64,000 nt of DNA from Methylococcales bacterium (GTDB lineage Bacteria > Pseudomonadota > Gammaproteobacteria > Methylococcales > Methylomonadaceae). Positions 2,325 through 16,616 of this stretch are shown here, piece after piece. The stretch covers positions 1,132-65,131 of the forward strand of contig JAPLRW010000271.1 in assembly GCA_026398935.1 (NCBI GenBank), given 5' to 3'. Both the position numbers and the translations under genes were made by a program. How positions within the stretch are numbered: the stretch's first letter is position 1; each line of letters opens with the position of its first letter. The notes beneath the pieces are model-generated. The model ran no database searches and had not been told where the DNA came from. It was given only the letters and a program-made list of their open reading frames with translations.

Positions 2325-3740
2325 ATGGCTAAAATAGGACAGCTAAAGGAACACGCCAGTCTATTGGTTTTTATTGTTAAACTGTTAGATTGGTTAATTA
2401 TTTGTGGCGGTGGTTGGCTAGGGTTCTTAGTGTTAGAACCGTTTAAAACCTTTCCAGACTATACAGGTTTATTGCCACCGAATTATTTAACCGCTATCAG
2501 TTTAGGTTTTGTTTTTAGCGCATGGTGGTTTCCGGTATTTAACGTGTATAAGCGCTGGCGTGGCGAAAGCATTTATGAAGAGATTCGTACCCTGTTTTTT
2601 AGCTGGGCATCCGCCATGTTGGGAGTACTGGTGTTTATCGTCTTTACCAAAACCTCGGTCGCTTTCTCTCGGCATTGGCTCGCCGCCTGGTTTGCATTAG
2701 CCTTTGCGGGGTTAGTGCTTTTCCGTATCATATTAAGATTAACATTGCGTTATTTGCGACAAAATGGTTTTAACCAGCGGTATATTGTGTTGGTTGGCGA
2801 TGGTAGGCTTAGTCGACAAATTGCCGAAAAAATCGCCTCATCTACTTGGTTAGGATTAAATATCGTTGGTTTTTTTAGTGACACGGTGCAAGTACAGTCC
2901 GTTAGTGGCCTAAAAAAATTGGGCTCACTCGCTGAAATGGCTGCATACGTGGAAAAAAACGCCATTGACCAAGTGTGGATCACGCTGCCGTTAAAAGAAA
3001 TAGACGTGATCGAAAAGCTTTGTCACCAATTACATACCGTTGCGACCAATGTCCTCATGGTGCCGGATATGTCTAGCTTACGCTTGCTAAACCAATCTGT
3101 TACACAAATTGATGGTATTCCTATTATCAACATGTCTGTTTCACCAATGCAAAGCGGTAACCTTATCGGCAAATGGATAGAAGATAAGCTGCTGTCTCTG
3201 CTGATTTTGTTATTGATTAGTCCTTTGCTGGTATTGATTAGTCTTGCCGTTAAGCTAACCTCTCAAGGGCCGGTATTTTATAGCCAGGAACGTATCAGTT
3301 GGAATGGTAAGCGCTTTAAGATGTTAAAGTTTCGAACCTTGGCGGTTGATGCCGATAATCAAAAAGGCGCGCCTGTCTGGGGCGGGGCACGCAGTAAACA
3401 AGCGACACCAATAGGGCATTTTTTACGCAAAACCAGTATGGATGAGTTGCCGCAATTTATTAATGTGCTGAAAGGCGACATGTCGATTGTTGGCCCAAGA
3501 CCAGAACGCACGGTATTTGTCGATCAATTTAAATATGAAATTGATTGTTACATGAAAAAACATTTAGTAAAAGCTGGCATTACCGGATGGGCGCAAATCA
3601 ATGGCTTGCGTGGCGATACTTGTATAAAAACCAGAGTAGACTACGATTTGTATTATATTGAACATTGGTCGCTGTGGTTTGATTTGAAGATTATTTTGCT
3701 AACGTTGTGCAAAGGGTTTGTGCATGACAATGCATATTGA
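2325..3740 (+). CDS. undecaprenyl-phosphate hexose-1-phosphate transferase (WcaJ/exopolysaccharide polyprenyl glycosylphosphotransferase family, initiating enzyme)
   Basis: 471 aa. N-terminal TM helices are followed by a central soluble domain and a C-terminal bacterial sugar-transferase block (MDELPQFINVLKGDMSIVGPRPER, GITGWAQINGLRG). Confidence 0.85.
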   Translation: MAKIGQLKEHASLLVFIVKLLDWLIICGGGWLGFLVLEPFKTFPDYTGLLPPNYLTAISLGFVFSAWWFPVFNVYKRWRGESIYEEIRTLFFSWASAMLGVLVFIVFTKTSVAFSRHWLAAWFALAFAGLVLFRIILRLTLRYLRQNGFNQRYIVLVGDGRLSRQIAEKIASSTWLGLNIVGFFSDTVQVQSVSGLKKLGSLAEMAAYVEKNAIDQVWITLPLKEIDVIEKLCHQLHTVATNVLMVPDMSSLRLLNQSVTQIDGIPIINMSVSPMQSGNLIGKWIEDKLLSLLILLLISPLLVLISLAVKLTSQGPVFYSQERISWNGKRFKMLKFRTLAVDADNQKGAPVWGGARSKQATPIGHFLRKTSMDELPQFINVLKGDMSIVGPRPERTVFVDQFKYEIDCYMKKHLVKAGITGWAQINGLRGDTCIKTRVDYDLYYIEHWSLWFDLKIILLTLCKGFVHDNAY

Positions 3741-3891
3741 CCACCATGAGCTTAGCGTCATTTTAGCTGACGGATTTGGTACATAGATTGGCAAAATACG
3801 CTGTTTAGACTGGAAACCTGTGCATAACGTCGATTGAGAAAATATCGATACACACCTGTGGCAGAGTGATTGCCCATAATTATTAATACTT

Positions 3892-5271
3892 ATGAAAGGA
3901 AATACTGTGCAAGCAATGGCTAATCGTTTAGGTATTGACCGTGCAGTGTTTTATACATTACTCGCGAGGTCTTGGTCTGTCGGTGTAGGACTGTTAACGA
4001 TCTACTGTATTAGCCATTTTTTGTCCCCAACCCTTCAGGGCTATTACTACACCTTCAATAGCCTTATTGCACTACAAATATTTGTTGAACTGGGGCTTAA
4101 TTTCGCTATCGTACAGTTTGCTAGCCATGAAATGATTCATCTTTCTTGGCAATCGGATGGCACTATCGGTGGCTCGGAACTTGCAAAACGGCGATTACAG
4201 TCGCTTATAGGCTTTGGTCTGACGTGGTTTGGTATTGCGGCGTTATTAATGATGGGGTTTTTAATACCGATAGGAATGGTTTTTTTCGACAGAACGGCGG
4301 AGACAGGCATTACATCGACTGAAATATATTTACCTTGGACACTGTTGGTCATATTTACGGCACTAAACTTAATAGGCAGTAGTGTCGTTGCATTGATTGA
4401 AGGATGTGGTCAGATAGCTCAAGTGGCTATCCTGAAACTGTTACAATCGATTTTAACGGGGACGGTTGTATTACTGTCTTTAAGCCAAGGGCTTGGATTG
4501 TACGCTTTGGTCGGTAATAGTGCTGTGTTGCTCGCTATAACGCTTGTCTGGCTGGCAGGTAACTATCGGTGGTTTTTAATTGATCTGCTGAAGCATCGTT
4601 CCAAATTGCCAGGCATGAGTTGGCGGCATGAAATATGGCCATTTCATTGGCGAATTGCCCTAAGCTGGATGAGCGGTTATTTTATCTTCAATCTTTTCAA
4701 TCCGTTACTATTTGCCACCCATGGATCGAAGCTTGCTGGGCAAATGGGTATTAGCCTACAAATTATTTCAACGCTGAATGGGACTGCACTGGTTTGGATA
4801 AACACTAAAGCACCTATATTCGGTCAACTAATCGCGAAACGACAACCCAAGCAGCTCGATGCCTTATTTTTTAGAGCACTTTTTATATCGATGATTGCAT
4901 TAAGCATAACGCTACTTATTATTGGATGCGTACTTTGGTATCTTGATACGATCGGGTCAGTCTTTGTGCAACGGTTACTCCCACTACCTCTTTTAGGAGG
5001 GCTTGCTTTAGTATGCCTTGCAAATCATATTGTTTTTGCAGAGGCATCATATCTGCGTGCTCATAAGCAAGAGCCATTTATGGCGCTGTCTATCGCAAGT
5101 GGTATCGTTACGGCTTGTCTTGCTCTACTATTGGTGCCTATTTATGGGGCAGAGGGAGCTGTCGCAGCTTATGCTTCTACTGCCATAGTGATCGGATTGT
5201 TTGGTGGTACGGCAGTCTTTTTAAGAAAACGTCGCCAGTGGTGGCCAGAAACAATAAACATCGTCCCTTAA
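3892..5271 (+). CDS. Wzx-like oligosaccharide/polysaccharide flippase (MOP superfamily-like multi-pass membrane protein)
   Basis: 459 aa with roughly 12-14 predicted TM helices. It sits between the initiating transferase and the glycosyltransferases. The start could also be the Met at 3916. Confidence 0.55.
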   Translation: MKGNTVQAMANRLGIDRAVFYTLLARSWSVGVGLLTIYCISHFLSPTLQGYYYTFNSLIALQIFVELGLNFAIVQFASHEMIHLSWQSDGTIGGSELAKRRLQSLIGFGLTWFGIAALLMMGFLIPIGMVFFDRTAETGITSTEIYLPWTLLVIFTALNLIGSSVVALIEGCGQIAQVAILKLLQSILTGTVVLLSLSQGLGLYALVGNSAVLLAITLVWLAGNYRWFLIDLLKHRSKLPGMSWRHEIWPFHWRIALSWMSGYFIFNLFNPLLFATHGSKLAGQMGISLQIISTLNGTALVWINTKAPIFGQLIAKRQPKQLDALFFRALFISMIALSITLLIIGCVLWYLDTIGSVFVQRLLPLPLLGGLALVCLANHIVFAEASYLRAHKQEPFMALSIASGIVTACLALLLVPIYGAEGAVAAYASTAIVIGLFGGTAVFLRKRRQWWPETINIVP

Positions 5272-5346
5272 ACTATTATCGTACGGGATAATTAATGAAA
5301 AACGATCCCTTTATTGATATAACTATACTGCAATAGGTCTATATAA

Positions 5347-6123
5347 ATGAGCTTGAGTGTTTTCATACCCACTTATAATTGTGGGCAGTATATTAGAGAA
5401 ACAATTGAATCTGTTTTATTGCAATCGATACCGTTGTTAAAAATTATCGTTGTAGACAATTATTCAACGGACAATACAGAAGAGATAGTGTCCAACTATA
5501 CTGAAAAAGGCGTCAGCTACATAAAACATCCCGTCAATATTGGAGGGATACCTAATCACAATTTTTGTTTAGATATGGCGGATACAGAATATCTAAAGTT
5601 ATTATCTGCTGACGATGTTTTATTGCCTGGAATTCTGGCGCTACAGCTAAACGCTTTAAAGAATAATCCAGAGTGTGGTATTGCAACGTGTAATTATCTC
5701 ATTACTGACTCAACTTTACACGTTACAGCCCATTCAAAAATTTTACAAGGCAAGGTCAAAGGAGCACATGTTATTAAAACGTGTGCTACTAAAGTAAAAA
5801 ATCTTATTGGCGGCCCTTCAATGGCAATGCTGCGCCGTGACGCTATTGGAGAAAGACGATTTAATTCCAATTTTAAATGGACTAGCGACTTGTTATTTTT
5901 TTGCGACATTTTACAACACTCAACCTTAATAAACGTTGGTGTTAATGGTGTATTGTATAGACGACATAATCAAACTGATTCTGATTTAATGTGTATAAAA
6001 TCTATTCGGCTTCATGATGAAATGTACTTTGTAAATAACTTCTCGAAAAGAAAAGTCGAACCTTATTTAAGATTGTTAAAAAGATATGGATTTGACTATA
6101 TTTCCAAAATTACTGAACCTTAA
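5347..6123 (+). CDS. family 2 glycosyltransferase
   Basis: N-terminus LSVFIPTYNCGQYIRETIESVLLQ..VVDNYSTDNT and a later SADD(V) DxD-like motif are classic GT2 (GT-A) signatures. The gene is AT-rich. Confidence 0.8.
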   Translation: MSLSVFIPTYNCGQYIRETIESVLLQSIPLLKIIVVDNYSTDNTEEIVSNYTEKGVSYIKHPVNIGGIPNHNFCLDMADTEYLKLLSADDVLLPGILALQLNALKNNPECGIATCNYLITDSTLHVTAHSKILQGKVKGAHVIKTCATKVKNLIGGPSMAMLRRDAIGERRFNSNFKWTSDLLFFCDILQHSTLINVGVNGVLYRRHNQTDSDLMCIKSIRLHDEMYFVNNFSKRKVEPYLRLLKRYGFDYISKITEP

Positions 6124-6156
6124 TTCATAAAATTTATTTTTAAAGCGTATTAGACA

Positions 6157-7029
6157 ATGGCCCATTCAACATCAAATAAAGCTGATATTATAGTTAGCCT
6201 AATAATGGCTACTTATCATAGGAAAGAAGAGGTGGCCTGTTTTATTAAAAGCCTAGTCGTTCAAGATTTTGATATTAAAAAAATAGAATTAATTATTGTT
6301 GACCAAAATAGTGATGGATTGCTTGATATTATCGTAGCAGAGTATCAGTCACAATTAAAAATCATACACATTAAATCTACAACGCTTGGACTCAGCCTTA
6401 ATAGAAATATTGGTATAAAAAGCGCTAAAGGTAGTATTCTTTGCTTTCCAGACGATGATTGTACGTATTATCCGAATACATTAGCAGAGGTTCATAGATT
6501 ATTTTTAGAAAATGATCGAGTGACTACTCTTCTAGGTCAGATTATTGATGTTAATGGTCATAAAATCATTAGAAAATGGCCTGACAATACTGTGAAATTA
6601 TCAAGCATGAATTTCTTTACTTTATATTCTTCAATTACTGTTTTTACAAAATGCAAGAACACTTATTTTGATGTTCGCCTAGGGATTGGTAATAAATTTG
6701 GTTCTTATGAAGACGCTGATTATATTTTGTCACTGCTGAGAGAAAATCCCGGCGCAATGTATTATTATCCCAATATAAAAGTGTCTCATCCCCCCTTGAA
6801 TATTAAAACCATGTCGCCTGAGAAAGTAGTGAACTATGGCCTCGGTTTTGGTGCATTTTGTAAAAAAAATATATCCTTTTATATTTTTACATTATACCTA
6901 AAAGTAATAATATATCATGTGCTTATGATGCTGCTGGCTGTTTTAAAAATGGATTCAGTAGAATTAAAAAAGCGCTATTTGTCTACCACATCAAGGATAA
7001 AAGGTTTCTTAGTTTTTCAAGATGATTGA
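6157..7029 (+). CDS. family 2 glycosyltransferase
   Basis: IVSLIMATYHRKEEV..IIVDQNSDG and FPDDDC (DxD) match the GT2 fold pattern. A hydrophobic C-terminal helix is present. The gene is AT-rich. Confidence 0.75.
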   Translation: MAHSTSNKADIIVSLIMATYHRKEEVACFIKSLVVQDFDIKKIELIIVDQNSDGLLDIIVAEYQSQLKIIHIKSTTLGLSLNRNIGIKSAKGSILCFPDDDCTYYPNTLAEVHRLFLENDRVTTLLGQIIDVNGHKIIRKWPDNTVKLSSMNFFTLYSSITVFTKCKNTYFDVRLGIGNKFGSYEDADYILSLLRENPGAMYYYPNIKVSHPPLNIKTMSPEKVVNYGLGFGAFCKKNISFYIFTLYLKVIIYHVLMMLLAVLKMDSVELKKRYLSTTSRIKGFLVFQDD

Positions 7030-7075
7030 TATAGATAGCATCTGTTATGCACACCTATGAAATGTAAGCCAACTG

Positions 7076-8011
7076 ATGGTTATTTATAATACAGCCTCTA
7101 TTATGCCGCGTCCTTCCATCAATGTTTTTATTCCAACATATAATGCCGAACTGTTTATTGCTACACTGCTGACTAGCATTAAAAGCAGCCCTTATAACGT
7201 TTATATTTTAGTCATTGATTCCTCTTCCTCTGATGATACTGTCAATATTGTTCGGCAATACGCTGCCGAAATCATCGTTATTCCACAATCTGATTTTAAT
7301 CATGGTGCAACAAGGGAGTTTGCACGAAAAAAATACCCGCATGATATTACCGTTTTTTTAACCCAAGATGCGCTGCCAACTTCAACTGATTTAATTGAAA
7401 AATTGGTTGCACCATTGATAGCCGATAAAACCATTGCAGTCAGCTATGGTCGCCAAATTCCGCAGGATAACGCGGATATATTTGAAGCGTTCCCACGTGA
7501 GTATAATTATGGCGTAGAGGCTCAAGTACGTAGCATCGGTGACGTTAATCAATTTGGTGTATATACTTTTTTTTGTTCCAACAGTTGTGCTGCTTATAGA
7601 AACTCAGCGCTTGATGAAGTGGGTGGTTTTAAACGTGTATTAACCAATGAAGATTATTTCGCGGTTGCTGATTTGCTACAGAAGGGCTACAAAATTGCTT
7701 ATGTTCCCGATGCCGTTGTTATACATTCTCACCGCTATACCTTATGGCAGGAGTTTCAACGCTATTTTGATACGGGGTATGTTAGAGCGGAATATCCGAT
7801 TATTCAACAATTAGTCGGGCAGGCAGAGAAAAGAGGTATGGGATTTGTAACGGCTTTAATTAAAAAGCTATGGATAGAACGGCCAAGATTAATCCCTTAT
7901 GCAATAGGTCAATCTCTTATAAAGTGGTTAGGGTATAGGGTAGGTTTTTATGGCAAAAAGTTACCTTTATGGCTAAAAAAGCAATTAAGTCAGCAACATT
8001 ATTATTGGTAA
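7076..8011 (+). CDS. family 2 glycosyltransferase (rhamnosyltransferase-like)
   Basis: INVFIPTYNAELFI..VIDSSSSDDT and FLTQDALP motifs. The more likely start is the Met at 7103 (MPRPSINVF..). Confidence 0.75.
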   Translation: MVIYNTASIMPRPSINVFIPTYNAELFIATLLTSIKSSPYNVYILVIDSSSSDDTVNIVRQYAAEIIVIPQSDFNHGATREFARKKYPHDITVFLTQDALPTSTDLIEKLVAPLIADKTIAVSYGRQIPQDNADIFEAFPREYNYGVEAQVRSIGDVNQFGVYTFFCSNSCAAYRNSALDEVGGFKRVLTNEDYFAVADLLQKGYKIAYVPDAVVIHSHRYTLWQEFQRYFDTGYVRAEYPIIQQLVGQAEKRGMGFVTALIKKLWIERPRLIPYAIGQSLIKWLGYRVGFYGKKLPLWLKKQLSQQHYYW

Positions 8012-10377: not shown

Positions 10378-13203
10378 ATGGACTACAAACAGACCCTTAA
10401 CTTACCAAATACACCCTTTGCCATGAAGGCTAATTTAGCCCAGCGTGAGCCAGAACGTTTAAAGCAATGGACTAAGGCTGAACTGTATCAAAAAATTCGG
10501 GCGGCGCGCCTTGGCGCACCGCAGTTTATTTTGCACGATGGCCCTCCGTATGCGAATGGCTCTATTCACATCGGCCATGCGGTTAATAAGGTGTTAAAAG
10601 ACATTATTATTAAGTCAAAAACCCTCAGTGGTTTTGATGCACCGTACATTCCTGGTTGGGATTGCCACGGCTTGCCGATTGAGTTAATGGTCGAAAAGAA
10701 AATTGGCAAGGCAGGTGTTAAGGTTTCTGCGGCAGATTTTCGTAAAGCCTGTCGTGAGTACGCGCAAAAACAAGTGGGTACTCAAAAAGACGAGTTTATC
10801 CGTTTAGGCATTTTAGGCGACTGGGAAAATCCTTATCTCACCATGAGTTATGGGGTTGAAGCTGACATTGTTAGGGCGCTAGGGAAAATCAGTAATCGCG
10901 GGCATTTAAGCCAAGGGTCAAAGCCCGTACATTGGTGTACGGATTGTGGCTCTGCGTTAGCGGAAGCGGAGGTAGAATATGAAGACAAACATTCTCCCGC
11001 CATTGACGTTCGTTTTAAGGTGGTTGATAGCACTATGTTTATGGAAAGCTGCCATCATTCACCGGAACACCATGGTGAAGGCGAGCTATCCGTGGTCATC
11101 TGGACGACAACGCCTTGGACATTACCCGCTAATCAAGCAGTCGCTTTAAATGCCGCGCTTGACTACGCAGTCGTGCAGTGTGAACAGGACGGTCAACCTG
11201 AGCGTTTGGTGATTGCAGAAGCATTACTAAAGGATGCCATGCTGCGTTACGGCATTGATGATTATCACGTCATTGCCTATTGCAAAGGCGAGGCATTAGA
11301 AAATCAATTATTGCAACACCCTTTTTATGATCGCCAAGTGCCGATTGTGTTGGGCGAGCATGTCACCACCGAAGCAGGTACGGGCGCGGTGCATACGGCT
11401 CCAGGTCATGGTCAGGATGATTATATTGTTGGACAACAGTATGGCTTGCCTGTTGATTGCCCCGTCGGCGATAACGGTGTTTTCTTGCCCAGTACTGAGT
11501 TGTTTGCGGGCGAACATGTGTTTAATGCCAATGCACATGTCGTCGAGGTGTTACAAGAGCGTGGCAAACTGGTACACCACCAAGCCTTACTGCACAGCTA
11601 TCCGCATTGCTGGCGGCATAAAACCCCGATTATTTTTCGCGCGACGCCGCAATGGTTTATCTCCATGGAGAAACAGCATCTGCGTGAAGATGCCCTGCAA
11701 GCCATTAAACAGGTGCAATGGATTCCCGATTGGGGTCAGGCGCGCATTGAAAGCATGATTAATGGTCGTCCTGATTGGTGCGTATCCAGACAGCGCACTT
11801 GGGGCGTACCTATTGTATTATTTGTGCATAAAGAAACGGGTGCCTTACATCCGCGTACCGATGAATTGCTTGAAGCCGTGGCCTTACGCATTGAACAAGC
11901 GGGCATAGAAGCCTGGTTTTCTTTAGATGCCACAGAATTACTGGGCGCAGAAGCAGAACACTATCAAAAAATGACCGATACACTGGACGTCTGGTTTGAT
12001 TCCGGTGTAACCCATTCGTCCGTTTTAAACAGACGCGAAAATTTACGCTTTCCTGCTGATTTATATTTGGAAGGCTCTGATCAACATCGCGGCTGGTTTC
12101 AATCCTCCTTACTGTCATCCATTGCGATGCAAGGTATTGCGCCTTATAAGGCAGTGTTAACACACGGCTTTACGGTGGATGCCGAAGGCAAAAAAATGTC
12201 CAAGTCCAAGGGTAATGTGGTTGCACCGCAAACCGTAATGAATGCCTTAGGGGCTGACGTGCTACGGCTGTGGGTTGCCGCAACGGATTATCGCGGCGAA
12301 ATGACCGTATCGGATGAGATTTTGAATCGTACCGCAGACGGTTATCGGCGTATACGTAATACAGCACGCTTTTTATTATCCAATTTAGATGGCTTTGATC
12401 CTGCTCTTCATAGTGTTAAACCAGACGAAATGCTGGCGTTAGATCGTTGGGTAGTGGATCGTGCGGCTGTTTTACAAGAAGAAATTAAAGCGGCCTACGA
12501 CAGCTATCAATTTCAAGTAGTGACGCAAAAAATCCTGCATTTTTGCTCATTGGATTTGGGTGGCTTTTACTTAGACATCACCAAAGATCGGCAATATACC
12601 GCAAAAGCCGACGGCCTCGCCAGACGTTCCGCGCAAACGGCCTTGTACCATGTTATTGAAGCGTTAACCCGTTGGCTTGCACCTATCATTAGCTACACAG
12701 CGGATGAAATATGGCAAAGCATTCCCGGTAACCGCGCCGAGTCGGTATTTTTAGAAACGTGGTATGACGGCTTGTTCAACCTGCAAGAACAAGAGCTTAT
12801 GGGGCGTGACTTCTGGAATACCCTCATGGAGGTGCGTACCACGGTTAGCAAAGCATTAGAACAGCATCGCGCTAAAGGCGAGATCGGCTCATCACTTAAT
12901 GCAAGCGTCCAGTTATATGCGGATGAGCGGCTATACCCGCTGTTAAAACAACTGGAAAGCGAATTGCATTTTGTATTGATTACATCGCTCGCAACCATTG
13001 CGCCTATCGCAGAAGCCCCCAGCGATGCTATCCAGACGGAAATAAGCGGTCTACGCTTAAAAGTCACGGCCTCTTCTCAGCCAAAATGCGTCCGTTGTTG
13101 GCATCAACGTGCCGATATTGGTAGCCATGCTGAGCATCCTGAACTGTGTGGTCGTTGCGTTGATAACGTAGCCGGCACAGGTGAAGTACGCCTTTACGCT
13201 TAA
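10378..13203 (+). CDS. ileS: isoleucine--tRNA ligase
   Basis: 941 aa with HIGH motif ([11 protein letters not shown]), KMSKS motif (KKMSKSKGN) and a C-terminal Zn-finger (CVRCW..CGRC). Confidence 0.98.
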
Positions 13204-13213
13204 AGAGAATGTT

Positions 13214-13690
13214 ATGTTGAAATGGTTGTGGTTGTCAGTATTGGTGCTGATTTTAGATCAGGCCAGTAAATTAGTGGTGGCAGAGGTGATGCAGCTGTAT
13301 CAATCCATCCCCTTGCTGCCAATGTTTAATTTACTGTATGTACACAATAACGGTGCGGCGTTCAGTTTTCTAAGCGAAGCGGGCGGCTGGCAGCGCTGGT
13401 TTTTTGCCGCAATGGCCTTGATCATTAGCGTGGTACTGACGGTTTGGTTAAGCCGCTTGCAAAAAACTGAGACACTATTAGCAGCCGCCTTGTCACTGGT
13501 GTTAGGTGGAGCAATCGGCAACCTGTATGATCGCTTGGCGTACGGCTATGTTATTGACTTTTTGGATGTGTATTATCAAAACTGGCATTGGCCAGCGTTT
13601 AATATCGCCGATTCAGCCATTACACTAGGGGTTGCGCTGCTGTTACTGGAATCGTTTGGGGTGGGTAAGAAAACGGCATCGAGTGAGTAG
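13214..13690 (+). CDS. lspA: lipoprotein signal peptidase (signal peptidase II)
   Basis: MLKWLWLSVLVLILDQASK.., NNGAAFSFL and FNIADSAI motifs. It occupies the conserved position after ileS. The ORF is open from 13181, but ATG 13214 fits the family N-terminus. Confidence 0.93.
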   Translation: MLKWLWLSVLVLILDQASKLVVAEVMQLYQSIPLLPMFNLLYVHNNGAAFSFLSEAGGWQRWFFAAMALIISVVLTVWLSRLQKTETLLAAALSLVLGGAIGNLYDRLAYGYVIDFLDVYYQNWHWPAFNIADSAITLGVALLLLESFGVGKKTASSE

Positions 13691-13825
13691 TCAGGCGCTG
13701 TAATGCGCAGAGCATAGAAGCGCATTCTCGCTGACGCTTAATAATCGCTAAAAAATATTGAAAAATAACCTTTCTGGCAACCTCAATAATGCAATCCTTT
13801 ATAAGGACGAAGAATTTTATAAAGT

Positions 13826-15127
13826 ATGAAATTAAAATTAGAAAATATAGGCATGATACGCCACGCGGATATTAAACTAGATGGATTGACTGTTATCGCT
13901 GGAGAAAACGATACGGGTAAAAGCACTGTAGGAAAACTCATATTTTCTTTAATTAAAGCCTTTAACCGTTATGAGCAGGATTTGAATGAAAGCAAGTCAG
14001 ATAGAGTTTTTGAATTAATTGAAAAAATTTATTTTCAACTGCGTAAAGAGTATGATTTTAAAGAGAATATGGAAATTAGAGATGCGTTTTTTCCACCTGT
14101 TTTTTTGAGGGAGTTTAAAAAAGCTGACGACCCGATCGCCCTAATTGATCATAAAATCATTCTCTTAAGAAAAATTGACGCAGTTAATGTTATTGCTGAT
14201 CTCGAATTAATAAAAAAAATATACTCAGAAGATGAAGATAAAGAGTCAAGTATTAAAAGAGCATTAGCCAAGGCTTTTGTTTCTGAATTTTATTTTGAAT
14301 TAACTCCAAAAAACTCTACTTTAGCCTCTCATATTAATCTTTCGGAAGGGCCAAATAAGATATTCGATATCGCTATAAAAGACAATAAAATTGACGATCT
14401 GAAGCTATATGACGACTTAACTTTTAATGACGTTACTCTTATTGAAACGCCTATTTTTTTGCAAATGTATGATTTAATCCGTTCTGCGTCGACTCTATTT
14501 GAAATGGAAGACAGTCGTGAGCGATCATTAAAATCTAGTCGACCAAATCCAAAGGTGGCATTACATGTAAAAGACTTAATTTCAAAACTAGAAAATGCAC
14601 AATATTTTTCTTTTCAACAAAAGCGTTTATTTGAAGATAATTTGGACAGCTTATTAGCTGATATTACTAAAATAACAAAAGGATCAGGATTTACCTTTGA
14701 AAAGAAAGATAGAGACTTCTACTTTAATAAAAACGGGAACACGAATTTCAAATCCATTAATACGGCAACCGGTTTAAAAGCATTTGGTATTATTCAATTG
14801 TTGATTCAGGCAAGTATTCTTAATGAAAGAAGTTTGCTTATTATTGACGAGCCAGAAATTCATCTACATCCGAAGTGGCAAGTAGAATATGCCAAATTAA
14901 TAGTAACTTTAGTGAAAAATAATATTCCAGTTTTATTGACTTCACATAGTCCAGAAATAATACAAGCATTAAGTACTTTCAGTGAAGAATTTGGAGTGCA
15001 AAATAGAACTACTTATTATCTTACAGAGAGTGATGGCGTAGTTTCTGACATAAATGATGTTAGCGAAGATATTAATAAGATATTCATTAAACTAGCCGAA
15101 CCATTACATAATTTGGTTTGGGATTAA
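13826..15127 (+). CDS. ABC/SMC-like AAA ATPase (AAA_15/AAA_21-type), candidate defence-system sensor/motor
   Basis: 433 aa. Walker A GENDTGKST (res 26-34) is followed by a long charged helical insertion, then NTATGLKAFG, Walker B LLIIDEPEIHLHP and LLTSHSPE. Sampled 60-nt lines are about 30% G+C, against about 45% in the flanking core genes. Confidence 0.8.
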   Translation: MKLKLENIGMIRHADIKLDGLTVIAGENDTGKSTVGKLIFSLIKAFNRYEQDLNESKSDRVFELIEKIYFQLRKEYDFKENMEIRDAFFPPVFLREFKKADDPIALIDHKIILLRKIDAVNVIADLELIKKIYSEDEDKESSIKRALAKAFVSEFYFELTPKNSTLASHINLSEGPNKIFDIAIKDNKIDDLKLYDDLTFNDVTLIETPIFLQMYDLIRSASTLFEMEDSRERSLKSSRPNPKVALHVKDLISKLENAQYFSFQQKRLFEDNLDSLLADITKITKGSGFTFEKKDRDFYFNKNGNTNFKSINTATGLKAFGIIQLLIQASILNERSLLIIDEPEIHLHPKWQVEYAKLIVTLVKNNIPVLLTSHSPEIIQALSTFSEEFGVQNRTTYYLTESDGVVSDINDVSEDINKIFIKLAEPLHNLVWD

Positions 15128-15132
15128 CAGGC

Positions 15133-15777
15133 ATGCTTGAAAGACTAATAGAATTTGGAATTAATGGGCATTTTTTTTATTTTATGCCAATAGGTCAATT
15201 AGAAAAGAGTTGTTGTTCTAACTCAAAATTAGAGGTTATTGATTTTGACAAAACCAAAGAAATACTGTCCAACATAACAAAATTACAACAACCAAAATCG
15301 GCTGACGCACTAAAAATATTACCTTTGTTGGATCGTATAGACTTCATAGAATTAAAGGGATTTAAAAAATTCATTCAGTACAACCAAGATAAACCAGATA
15401 TTGACAAAGAAATAAGCTATCAAGTTGAAAAGTTTGGTTTGACTGAAAAAATAAGAGATAGTTTATTTGTTTTGACCTTACTGACAAAACTGAAAGAATT
15501 TGAATGTAAAAAATCAGAACGCGAACAATATCAAAAAGCTACAAAAAACTATATTATAGTCGTTGATATTGATTTATATCAAAATCCTATAAAAGATAGA
15601 TTGATTACTTTGGCCTTTTTGAGTGAAGCTACCATCAATATAAAAAGCAGAATCTTAGATGAATTAAGTCAATCGGTTGATCGCATATTGATTTCTAGCC
15701 TAGAAAATCTTCAAAAGCCTATGATTATTAGTTGCAAAAATATAGATAGCTACTATCAAAAGCTTTTAAAAAAATAA
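15133..15777 (+). CDS. uncharacterised 214-aa partner protein of the AAA ATPase (possible nuclease-type effector)
   Basis: The ATG lies 5 nt after the ATPase stop, and the ORF is open from TTG 15118. Composition is equally AT-rich. I recognise no family. Acidic/Lys motifs are present: D58..D70-F-I-E73-L-K75 and VVD145-I-D147. Confidence 0.6.
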   Translation: MLERLIEFGINGHFFYFMPIGQLEKSCCSNSKLEVIDFDKTKEILSNITKLQQPKSADALKILPLLDRIDFIELKGFKKFIQYNQDKPDIDKEISYQVEKFGLTEKIRDSLFVLTLLTKLKEFECKKSEREQYQKATKNYIIVVDIDLYQNPIKDRLITLAFLSEATINIKSRILDELSQSVDRILISSLENLQKPMIISCKNIDSYYQKLLKK

Positions 15778-15878
15778 TAGAGGTTGTTGAGTTCAGGATA
15801 GATACACGGTTAAAGTTCAAACCCATTTCATCTGTCTGTCGTTCTCGCGCTTTAACTTAAGAACAATGCAACGAGGAC

Positions 15879-16616
15879 TTACCGTCTAACCGCCCGCATC
15901 ACTTGTTTCAAATCCTTTACGGTCTGTGCTAAGCCGGAAAACAGTGCTTGAGCAATGATTGAATGCCCGATATTCAGCTCAACAAGCTCAGGAATCTGAC
16001 AAATGGCTTCAACATTGTAGAAGTTTAAACCATGCCCTGCGTTGACCTGTAAACCACATTGCTTAGCGTAGTGTGCGGCGTGTTGAATGCGTTGCAGCTC
16101 TACTTGTTGTTGCGCGCGACCACTGGCATCGGCATAAGCGCCGGTATGTAATTCAATAACGGGCGCGCCCGCTTTAAGCGCCGCATCAATTTGTGCGGCT
16201 TCAGGATCAATAAACAACGACACTTCGATCCCGCCATCCCCTAAGCGTTGGCAAGCACCACGCACTGCAGTAAAGTTAGCGACAACATCCAGTCCGCCTT
16301 CGGTGGTTAATTCCGCTCTTTTTTCTGGAACCAAACAACAGGCAAATGGCTGTACTTGCAAGGCAATACGCAGCATCTCTTCGGTGACGCCCATTTCTAA
16401 GTTCAAGCGCGTTTGTAGCACCTCTTTTAAACGTAAAATATCGCTATCCTGAATATGCCGACGGTCTTCCCGTAAATGTGCGGTAATGCCATCAGCGCCG
16501 GCTTGTTCTGCCACCAGCGCAGCTTGTACAGGATCAGGGTAAATCGTTCCGCGCGCCTGCCGAACGGTGGCGATATGATCAATATTAACGCCCAGTAAAA
16601 TAAGATTTTTCTGCAT
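15879..16616 (-). CDS. pdxJ: pyridoxine 5'-phosphate synthase
   Basis: [32 protein letters not shown] matches the PdxJ signature. It sits in the conserved recO-pdxJ position. Confidence 0.95.

Follow-up and report, generated by a model that had tools for sequence, protein, structure and literature searches.

The window analysed here, i.e. the whole stretch of 64,000 nucleotides (nt) from a Methylococcales bacterium (contig JAPLRW010000271.1 of the GenBank assembly GCA_026398935.1, positions 1,132 to 65,131 of the forward strand), contains between lspA and pdxJ an island of two open reading frames, ORF1 and ORF2, which, judging from its sequence, is probably an anti-phage cassette of two horizontally acquired genes, belonging to the class 'ABC ATPase + PD-(D/E)xK nuclease'. 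The pair appears to be a divergent, uncatalogued branch of the 'ABC ATPase plus NERD-like nuclease' class, represented by HEC-02 (Hma-embedded candidate 02) and PD-T4-4, and it is not a new kind of system, since the architecture and both domain types have already been validated in HEC-02 and PD-T4-4. The ORF1-ORF2 family itself has not been catalogued: its nuclease goes unrecognised by the library models tested. An earlier reading of the bare sequence (further, the sequence-only reading) had seen here a sensor ATPase paired with an effector in a compositionally foreign block; this view, and with it the horizontal acquisition of the two genes, is supported. The analysis established the domain identities, the conservation of the catalytic residues, the strict co-occurrence and order of the two genes, their foreign composition, and their patchy distribution across phyla and on plasmids.

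ORF1 (13826-15127, 433 amino acids, aa) and ORF2 (15133-15777, 214 aa) are both encoded on the forward strand and separated by 5 nt; lspA (stop at 13690) precedes them, and the convergent pdxJ on the reverse strand (stop at 15879) follows. The sequence-only reading had located the two genes exactly. A TTG at 15118 offers an alternative upstream start for ORF2, but we assign the start to the ATG at 15133, because all homologues begin with MLxRL. The block was also rightly read as compositionally foreign: the G+C content of the pair is 0.302 against 0.442 in the remaining window, which makes it the lowest-G+C stretch of 1,952 nt in the 64 kb (z = -4.6; the second lowest, 0.326, lies at about 5.25 kb), and the G+C content at third codon positions (GC3) is 0.24 in both ORF1 and ORF2 versus 0.46 in ileS, 0.56 in lspA and 0.44 in pdxJ.

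The ATPase ORF1 and its predicted nuclease partner ORF2

ORF1 is an ABC/SMC-type ATPase head bearing a helical insert. Its affiliation with the AAA_15/AAA_21 ATPases, recognised already in the sequence-only reading, was confirmed by Pfam (AAA_15 at 2.7e-15, AAA_21 at 3.3e-13), and the four motifs listed below, with the residues invariant across 49 homologues, occupy precisely the positions given there.

13826..15127, + strand: ORF1, ABC/SMC-type ATPase (AAA_15/AAA_21) of 433 aa, predicted sensor/regulator subunit (Pfam, PADLOC models, AlphaFold2 and Foldseek)
13901..13927, + strand: Walker A / P-loop GENDTGKST, residues 26-34, including K32; G26, G31, K32, S33 and T34 invariant
14759..14788, + strand: ABC signature-like NTATGLKAFG, residues 312-321; N312, A314, G316, K318, F320 and G321 invariant
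14834..14872, + strand: Walker B and D-loop LLIIDEPEIHLHP, residues 337-349; D341, E342, P343, E344, H346 and P349 invariant
14933..14956, + strand: H-loop/switch LLTSHSPE, residues 370-377; H374, S375 and P376 invariant

The AlphaFold2 model of ORF1, built from the 49 homologues (predicted score in the local distance difference test, pLDDT, 86.6; predicted TM-score, pTM, 0.85), has its top PDB matches in PtuA of Septu and retron I-A (9n69, 8sux and 8eea, E about 2e-8), followed by Rad50, SMC heads and retron-Eco8, all with probability 1.00. A search of PDB sequences likewise returned PtuA as the closest protein (1e-6), with AriA structures at 1e-4; RecN and SMC_N gave weak sequence matches, and phrog_14430, a PHROG family with no function assigned, matches ORF1 over its full length at 1e-68. 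As to the insertion, which the sequence-only reading had described as charged, helical and about 270 aa long, the insert is indeed present, but the segment of about 260 aa is not all helical: in the model, the helical bundle of residues ~49-155 is followed by beta-strands 168-206, which belong to the ABC core. The protein ends at residue 433, soon after the H-loop, and the model contains no additional C-terminal domain. Two homologues from Bacteroidetes, P0140 and P0158 (about 610 aa, 47-50% identical), possess an additional N-terminal domain of about 170 aa. We rejected the reading of these long homologues as ATPase-nuclease fusions, because the additional residues are N-terminal and unrelated to ORF2.

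As for ORF2, family conservation and the structural model predict a small nuclease of the restriction-endonuclease fold (NERD-like), with D58, E73 and K75 as the catalytic residues and with D37/D39, K106/S110 and D145 as probable accessory ones. The respective elements are as follows.

15133..15777, + strand: ORF2, 214 aa, predicted PD-(D/E)xK (NERD-like) nuclease effector (family conservation, bridge members described below, AlphaFold2)
15235..15357, + strand: predicted catalytic core, residues 35-75: VIDFD strand (D37, D39), helix, PKSaDA (K55, S56 and D58, opening a beta-strand), FIELKG (E73 and K75, in the following strand)
15448..15462, + strand: helix motif KIRDS (K106, S110)
15565..15567, + strand: D145 (VVD), where beta-strand 137-144 ends

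Among 82 diverse members of the ORF2 family, reaching down to 17-30% identity, S56, D58, E73 and K75 are the sole invariant residues, and D37, D39, K106, S110 and D145 are kept in at least 90%. In the AlphaFold2 model (pLDDT 89.4, pTM 0.86), strand 34-37 and helix 38-49 precede strands 59-63 and 68-75; D58 stands immediately before the first of the latter two and E73/K75 within the second, so that the model displays the arrangement expected of PD-(D/E)xK enzymes, in which one strand opens with an acidic residue, the next bears (D/E)xK and the core is alpha/beta. One homologue is labelled by JGI as a 'predicted nuclease of restriction endonuclease-like (RecB) superfamily'. A TOPRIM-like reading, in which E73 would combine with D145xD147, was rejected because D147 is not conserved, homologues having D/E/S/N or a gap at this position. 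The family comprised 55 clusters in a word-indexed search and, in an exhaustive profile search, 431 clusters (50% identity) at E ≤ 1e-3, or 255 at E ≤ 1e-10; nearly all its proteins are stand-alone and 200-230 aa long.

Relation to HEC-02, PD-T4-4 and other ATPase-based systems

HEC-02 consists of an ABC ATPase and a NERD-like PD-(D/E)xK nuclease and protects against phage, both genes being required; the tested example originates from Dickeya dianthicola NCPPB 3534 (Payne et al., 2024, bioRxiv 10.1101/2024.01.29.577857), and its sequences were taken by us from the supplementary table of that work. The window pair resembles HEC-02 in the layout of its two-gene operon, where the gene of the ABC ATPase precedes that of the small (here, predicted) PD-(D/E)xK nuclease, the two genes being adjacent and co-directional and their order held in 26/26 loci; besides, the core motifs of the ORF2 family, K[SA]xD, phi-phi-E-phi-K and K-x-x-D-[ST]-L, are in register with those of HEC-02B. 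The HEC-02A models PDLC04214 and PDLC04213 match ORF1 at 4.8e-27 (93 bits, in two stretches) and 5.8e-22, respectively, the score being equal to that for PD-T4-4_A, and the BLASTP match of ORF1 to the tested Dickeya HEC-02A (8e-12) covers only the C-terminal 126 aa and the P-loop. The differences are that ORF1 has 433 aa versus 342 aa in HEC-02A, i.e. is some 90-100 aa longer because of its larger helical insert, that ORF2 has 214 aa versus 169 aa in HEC-02B, that the window pair is not embedded in an Hma system, and that no HEC-02B model detects ORF2 itself; therefore, a two-component HEC-02 call with the PADLOC-DB v2 models would presumably fail.

PD-T4-4 of Escherichia coli ECOR58, described as 'ATPase, nuclease' and validated against phage (Vassallo et al., 2022, PMC9519451), was compared by means of its PADLOC models and its description. 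It is known to form higher-order complexes (10.1101/2025.07.10.664194). Its likeness to the window pair concerns the span of the two ORFs (1,973 nt versus 1,952 nt), the length of the ATPase (profiles of 460-474 positions versus 433 aa in ORF1), the classification of its nuclease as PD-(D/E)xK and its carriage on a mobile element. The PD-T4-4_A model PDLC04033 is the top PADLOC match of ORF1 (3e-28, 97 bits, in two stretches covering part of the profile), and PDLC04032 follows at 1.6e-21. In the general ranking of families, PD-T4-4_A (3e-28) and HEC-02A (4.8e-27) are succeeded by PDC-M47A (4e-23) and NsnB (6e-23) and, lower, by AriA (4e-16), PtuA (4e-15) and Old and GajA (both about 1e-13), so ORF1 is about equally far, at ~95-100 bits, from HEC-02A and PD-T4-4_A.

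The link between ORF2 and HEC-02B runs through intermediate members of the family. When each of the 82 members was scanned individually against the PADLOC models, four HEC-02B models were matched by 8, 5, 5 and 1 of them (19 matches, best E 6e-6), and every other nuclease-type family by one member at most; the latter include three Csm4 models with one match each, likely due to chance, and the PtuB model, matched by a single member at 0.0037, which is chance level. The bridge members P0297 and P0262, which match the window ORF2 at 5e-21 and 1e-22, respectively, have HEC-02B matches of 6e-6 to 2e-4 spanning residues ~36-117, that is, the conserved core. In the reverse direction, a hidden Markov model of the validated HEC-02B family matches P0297 at 4e-6, and an intermediate profile, for which the P0297 subclade was used, gives an alignment to this family at P = 0.0027 over 110 columns, the reversed-sequence control yielding P = 0.62 over 15 columns. 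P0297 also gives a Pfam NERD match of 2.6e-3 over residues 47-103, which at 18.7 bits is below the cut-off of 22.1, and another member matches Tox-REase-9 at 1e-3.

The ATPase side provides a similar bridge. P0054, a distant member of the ORF2 family (31% identical), is paired with a short ATPase of 328 aa, which follows the HEC-02A profile collinearly over its entire length (3e-31, in one stretch), and this pair, located in locus L111, appears by its sequence to be an architectural intermediate between the window pair and canonical HEC-02. Taken together, these comparisons identify both ORF1 and ORF2 as putative remote homologues of the HEC-02 components. The L111 pair itself (6018-7642) sits between purE and glyQ.

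The A/B names of HEC-02 matches in PADLOC need care. PDLC04146, named 'HEC-02B' (length 344), matches ATPases, and PDLC04145, named 'HEC-02A' (length 170), matches an ORF2-family member; PADLOC evidently holds a HEC-02 subtype of reversed gene order.

Several results weigh against placing the pair in this class as an anti-phage system. ORF2 has no match at E ≤ 1 in Pfam, PADLOC, NCBIfam or PHROGs; Foldseek found no significant match of its model in PDB or BFVD; and hhalign of the full ORF2-family profile with HEC-02B was not significant, either for the validated single sequence (E 0.12) or for the profile of the 41-sequence family (E 0.09). Neither ORF2 nor any of the 82 members matches a PD-T4-4_B model at E ≤ 0.1. 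The scores of ORF1 against HEC-02A and PD-T4-4_A are far below the level of true family members, the neighbourhoods of the pair consist mostly of housekeeping genes rather than defence islands, and PD-T4-4, the closest relative studied by biochemical means, did not cleave any DNA substrate in vitro when purified.

Part of these results could be explained if ORF2 were not a nuclease but an adaptor or effector of novel fold, its D...ExK residues being coincidental or serving another chemistry, which would imply a different, undescribed ATPase-effector system. A model as confident as that of ORF2 (pLDDT 89) and yet without a Foldseek match at E < 1e-3 in PDB or BFVD agrees with such a possibility, as do the absence of matches in the four libraries, the profile searches against PDB sequences, which found nothing, and the non-significant full-family hhalign. 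Nevertheless, we consider this explanation quite improbable. The only invariant residues of the 82 members form S-x-D ... E-x-K on consecutive beta-strands; it is over this very core that HEC-02B and NERD matches were obtained repeatedly and independently; and the intermediate profile stands at P = 0.0027 against 0.62 for its reversed control. Despite the non-significant hhalign, the motifs KSxD, IExK and KIxDSL of the ORF2 family align in register with KAVD, IEVK and KVRDTL of HEC-02B, and the Dickeya HEC-02B (KAMD...IEVK) has the same register as the catalytic core of ORF2. Foldseek revealed no significant structural similarity of ORF2 to a known PD-(D/E)xK member, but its weak top matches, MUS81 and XPF (E 0.17, TM ~0.2), are nucleases of the PD-(D/E)xK superfamily. 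Folds of this type are known as hard to detect (Steczkiewicz et al., 2012, as cited by Payne et al., 2024).

The structural search proposed in the sequence-only reading has, in sum, placed ORF1, with PtuA, Rad50 and SMC heads, but not ORF2. That reading could place ORF2 in no family, and this holds insofar as no library model matches it; the protein does belong to a family with a D...ExK signature, remotely linked to HEC-02B. It was also right that ORF2, as the effector, is not an HNH or DUF4435 protein, and no TOPRIM match was found for ORF2 either. Its two suggestions on the nature of the system fared worse. The first one, a very divergent or miniaturised relative of PARIS or Septu, disagrees with the D...ExK residues of ORF2 and with the best matches of ORF1, which are PD-T4-4_A and HEC-02A. 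The second, a new pairing, is not supported, an ABC ATPase with a small PD-(D/E)xK nuclease having already been validated in HEC-02 and PD-T4-4; the claim of a new system, which was to fall if profiles placed both proteins in a named one, has thus largely failed, although ORF2 itself escapes all models tested.

Membership in PARIS, Septu and OLD/Gabija was rejected, as ORF2 lacks TOPRIM, DUF4435 and HNH, and ORF1 has no fused TOPRIM. With PARIS the pair shares an AAA_15/AAA_21 ABC ATPase (AriA); AriB, in contrast, is a DUF4435/TOPRIM protein, neither of which is matched by ORF2 at E ≤ 1 in Pfam or PADLOC, and the conserved residues of ORF2 are D...ExK rather than E...DxD. Septu is closer: its PtuA is the nearest solved structure to the ORF1 model, and the logic of an ABC ATPase joined with a small nuclease is common to both. 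However, the nuclease of Septu, PtuB, is of the HNH type, whereas neither an HNH motif nor an HNH match in Pfam, PADLOC or NCBIfam was found for ORF2; moreover, PtuA models (4e-15) score below HEC-02A and PD-T4-4_A for ORF1, and the NCBIfam PtuA model gives 43 bits against a cut-off of 500. From the PtuAB of retron I-A the window pair differs in that there is neither a retron reverse transcriptase nor a retron non-coding RNA nearby. As to OLD and Gabija, the TOPRIM nuclease domain fused C-terminally in GajA is absent from ORF1, and the matches of the Old and GajA models are confined to its Walker B region (residues 332-381).

Distribution, genomic setting and mobility

Searches with ORF2 homologues yielded 26 loci with upstream sequence present, among them metagenomic contigs, 12 species-representative genomes and a Bacillus cereus plasmid. 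In each of the 26, the gene immediately upstream of the ORF2 homologue, with the same orientation and either overlapping it or separated by a few nt, encodes an ATPase; this was recognised as an ORF1 homologue by tblastn in 18 loci and as an AAA_15/AAA_21 ATPase of 433-461 aa in the gene tables of seven (25 ORF1 homologues in all), and by Pfam/PADLOC in L111, where it has 328 aa. ORF1 and ORF2 are inherited and moved as a unit. The hosts include Methylomonas, Methylococcaceae, Thioploca, Halobeggiatoa, Deferrimicrobium, Arcicella, Saprospiraceae and Flavobacterium, and the pair spans Gammaproteobacteria, Bacteroidota and Bacillus plasmids. Conservation is in every case higher for the ATPase than for the nuclease, e.g. 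77% versus 55%. Remote versions, in which the ATPase is 28-29% identical and the partner of 192-222 aa has the same motifs, were found on three more records: a mobilizable Klebsiella plasmid of 5.9 kb, an Acinetobacter plasmid and a human-gut record in a phage collection.

The first of these records, the clinical, MOBP-mobilizable Klebsiella pneumoniae plasmid NZ_CP103616.1 (L009; 5,883 bp), has the pair at 3382-5347 as its main cargo, beside a RelE/NadS module. The ATPase is 28% identical and the 222-aa partner carries the S-x-D...E-x-K motifs, the two being annotated merely as 'AAA family ATPase' and 'hypothetical protein'.

In 19/19 loci the pair has a higher A+T content than the sequence flanking it, and its insertion site is different every time, even between relatives that are 88% (ATPase) and 77% (nuclease) identical, one of which is located after thrC and the other between an Rce1-like gene and a Fer4/CCG gene. 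Alignment of the flanks of 10 cassettes (with loci L002, L003, L005, L011-L013, L019, L104 and L106) showed that homology extends from ~40-45 nt before the ATG of ORF1 as far as the stop codon of ORF2; no terminal repeats or recombinase were found in the aligned cassettes. The non-coding sequences on the two sides of the window pair differ accordingly.

13781..13825, + strand: AT-rich leader with the ribosome-binding region, the sole non-coding sequence conserved with related cassettes
15778..15878, no strand: downstream spacer from the ORF2 stop to the pdxJ stop, not conserved with other cassettes and folding no better than its shuffles; probably host sequence

As the sequence-only reading had noticed, neither an integrase, nor a tRNA, nor a flanking direct repeat accompanies the island: there is no tRNA in the whole window, no meaningful flanking repeat at the island and no integrase-like ORF within it. 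Furthermore, the island has no Rfam match, the + strand of 13691-13825 yielded no sigma-70 promoter that would be convincing, and terminator predictions at the island were nothing beyond chance.

At 13181-16616 of the window, ileS and lspA lead directly into the island, after which comes the convergent pdxJ-recO-era-rnc block. Among 80 related metagenomic pdxJ loci (L024-L103; closest PdxJ 76% identical), recO and pdxJ are kept together, neither lspA nor ileS occurs within 5 kb downstream of pdxJ in any, and the pair is absent from all 80. Since recO-pdxJ is kept and lspA/ileS is never downstream in these loci, the island is situated at a lineage-specific synteny junction; an empty, pre-insertion site could not be reconstructed from the 80 loci. 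These data bear upon the possibility that the pair is native and serves DNA repair or chromosome maintenance, like an ATPase of the RecF/RecN/SbcCD type with its nuclease. The Rad50/SMC-like fold of ORF1, its weak RecN and SMC_N matches and the housekeeping genes flanking the pair would suit such a role. Yet a GC3 of 0.24 against 0.44-0.56 in the neighbours, the absence of the pair from all related pdxJ loci, its patchy distribution across phyla and on plasmids, the different sites in close relatives, and the fact that no NCBIfam housekeeping equivalog comes near its cut-off make a housekeeping function scarcely credible.

Of the two expectations expressed in the sequence-only reading about the setting of ORF2 homologues, consistent adjacency to this ATPase clade was found throughout, while an enrichment in defence islands was not, their neighbours being mostly housekeeping genes. 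Other neighbours, each at one locus, are a Type ISP restriction enzyme, an IS110 element and HicAB (L005).

In L109 (1-12953) the pair lies in a true defence island, with two SIR2-nSTAND (Avs-like) genes on one side and a CHAT-NACHT-TPR gene on the other. In L007 (5001-7300) an ORF1 homologue (53% identical) adjoins a CI-like HTH_3/Peptidase_S24 repressor and small phage-like ORFs; no ORF2-like partner follows this ATPase, and the G+C content jumps sharply directly after it. Either the system has decayed here or the contig is chimeric.

The genomic setting might also suggest a selfish addiction or stabilisation module, similar to toxin-antitoxin (TA) systems, with ORF2 as a toxic nuclease and ORF1 as an ATP-dependent antidote; such a pair would persist because its loss is harmful, phage defence being at most a side effect. 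This is consistent with its position as the main cargo of the 5.9-kb mobilizable Klebsiella plasmid, its occurrence on Bacillus and Acinetobacter plasmids beside RelE/ParE modules, the adjoining HicAB in L005, the mostly single location among housekeeping genes instead of defence islands, and the Pfam label of AAA_21, 'putative AbiEii toxin, Type IV TA system'. On the other hand, the nearest characterised relatives, HEC-02 and PD-T4-4, protect against phage, and TA behaviour and abortive-infection defence are not mutually exclusive. The orphan ATPase of L007 suggests that the ATPase can persist alone, though loss of the toxin would be expected under either model. On balance, we regard an addiction module as rather unlikely.

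The window harbours a second AT-rich patch at ~5.3-7.0 kb (G+C 0.30-0.35), with three glycosyltransferase-like ORFs (5347-6123, 6157-7029 and 7076-8011), preceded by a multi-transmembrane, Wzx-like ORF (3892-5271). The region 3892-8011 looks like an ordinary polysaccharide-biosynthesis cluster, which is probably horizontally variable.

Proposed mode of action and significance

The mode of action of the anti-phage cassette could be as follows. ORF1 and ORF2, being 5 nt apart, are translationally coupled. Judging by PD-T4-4 and Septu, their products would assemble into a complex whose ATPase keeps the nuclease inactive until a phage-derived trigger appears; the insert regions of ORF1 might sense this infection cue. 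Binding or hydrolysis of ATP would then license cleavage of nucleic acid by ORF2, possible targets being phage DNA or, in an abortive-infection mode, host nucleic acid or RNA. We infer the complex and the licensing from the facts that HEC-02 needs both genes, that PD-T4-4 forms complexes and that in PtuA-PtuB structures an ATPase scaffold holds the nuclease. The inactivity of PD-T4-4 in vitro suggests that a viral cue is required or that the target is RNA.

It is possible, though in our opinion unlikely, that the pair founds a distinct, unnamed defence family with at least 431 nuclease clusters at 50% identity, whose effector has diverged past all current models and Foldseek and which may respond to another trigger or attack another substrate, e.g., RNA, than HEC-02 and PD-T4-4. 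Under this interpretation, the bare cassette of ~2 kb, without repeats or recombinase and at a new site among housekeeping genes in each genome, hints at an unrecognised mode of mobility, possibly using the cassette's own nuclease.

As a probable divergent branch of the HEC-02/PD-T4-4 class, the pair opens no new category of immunity. What it exposes is a blind spot in detection, concerning a fairly widespread cassette of methanotrophs, sulfur bacteria, Bacteroidota, Bacillus and enterobacterial plasmids: the models of PADLOC-DB v2, Pfam, NCBIfam and PHROG miss its nuclease, and therefore model-based censuses probably undercount the HEC-02/PD-T4-4 class. Addition of an ORF2-family profile to these libraries would close the gap, and the divergent branch would be useful for studying how ABC ATPases gate PD-(D/E)xK nucleases.

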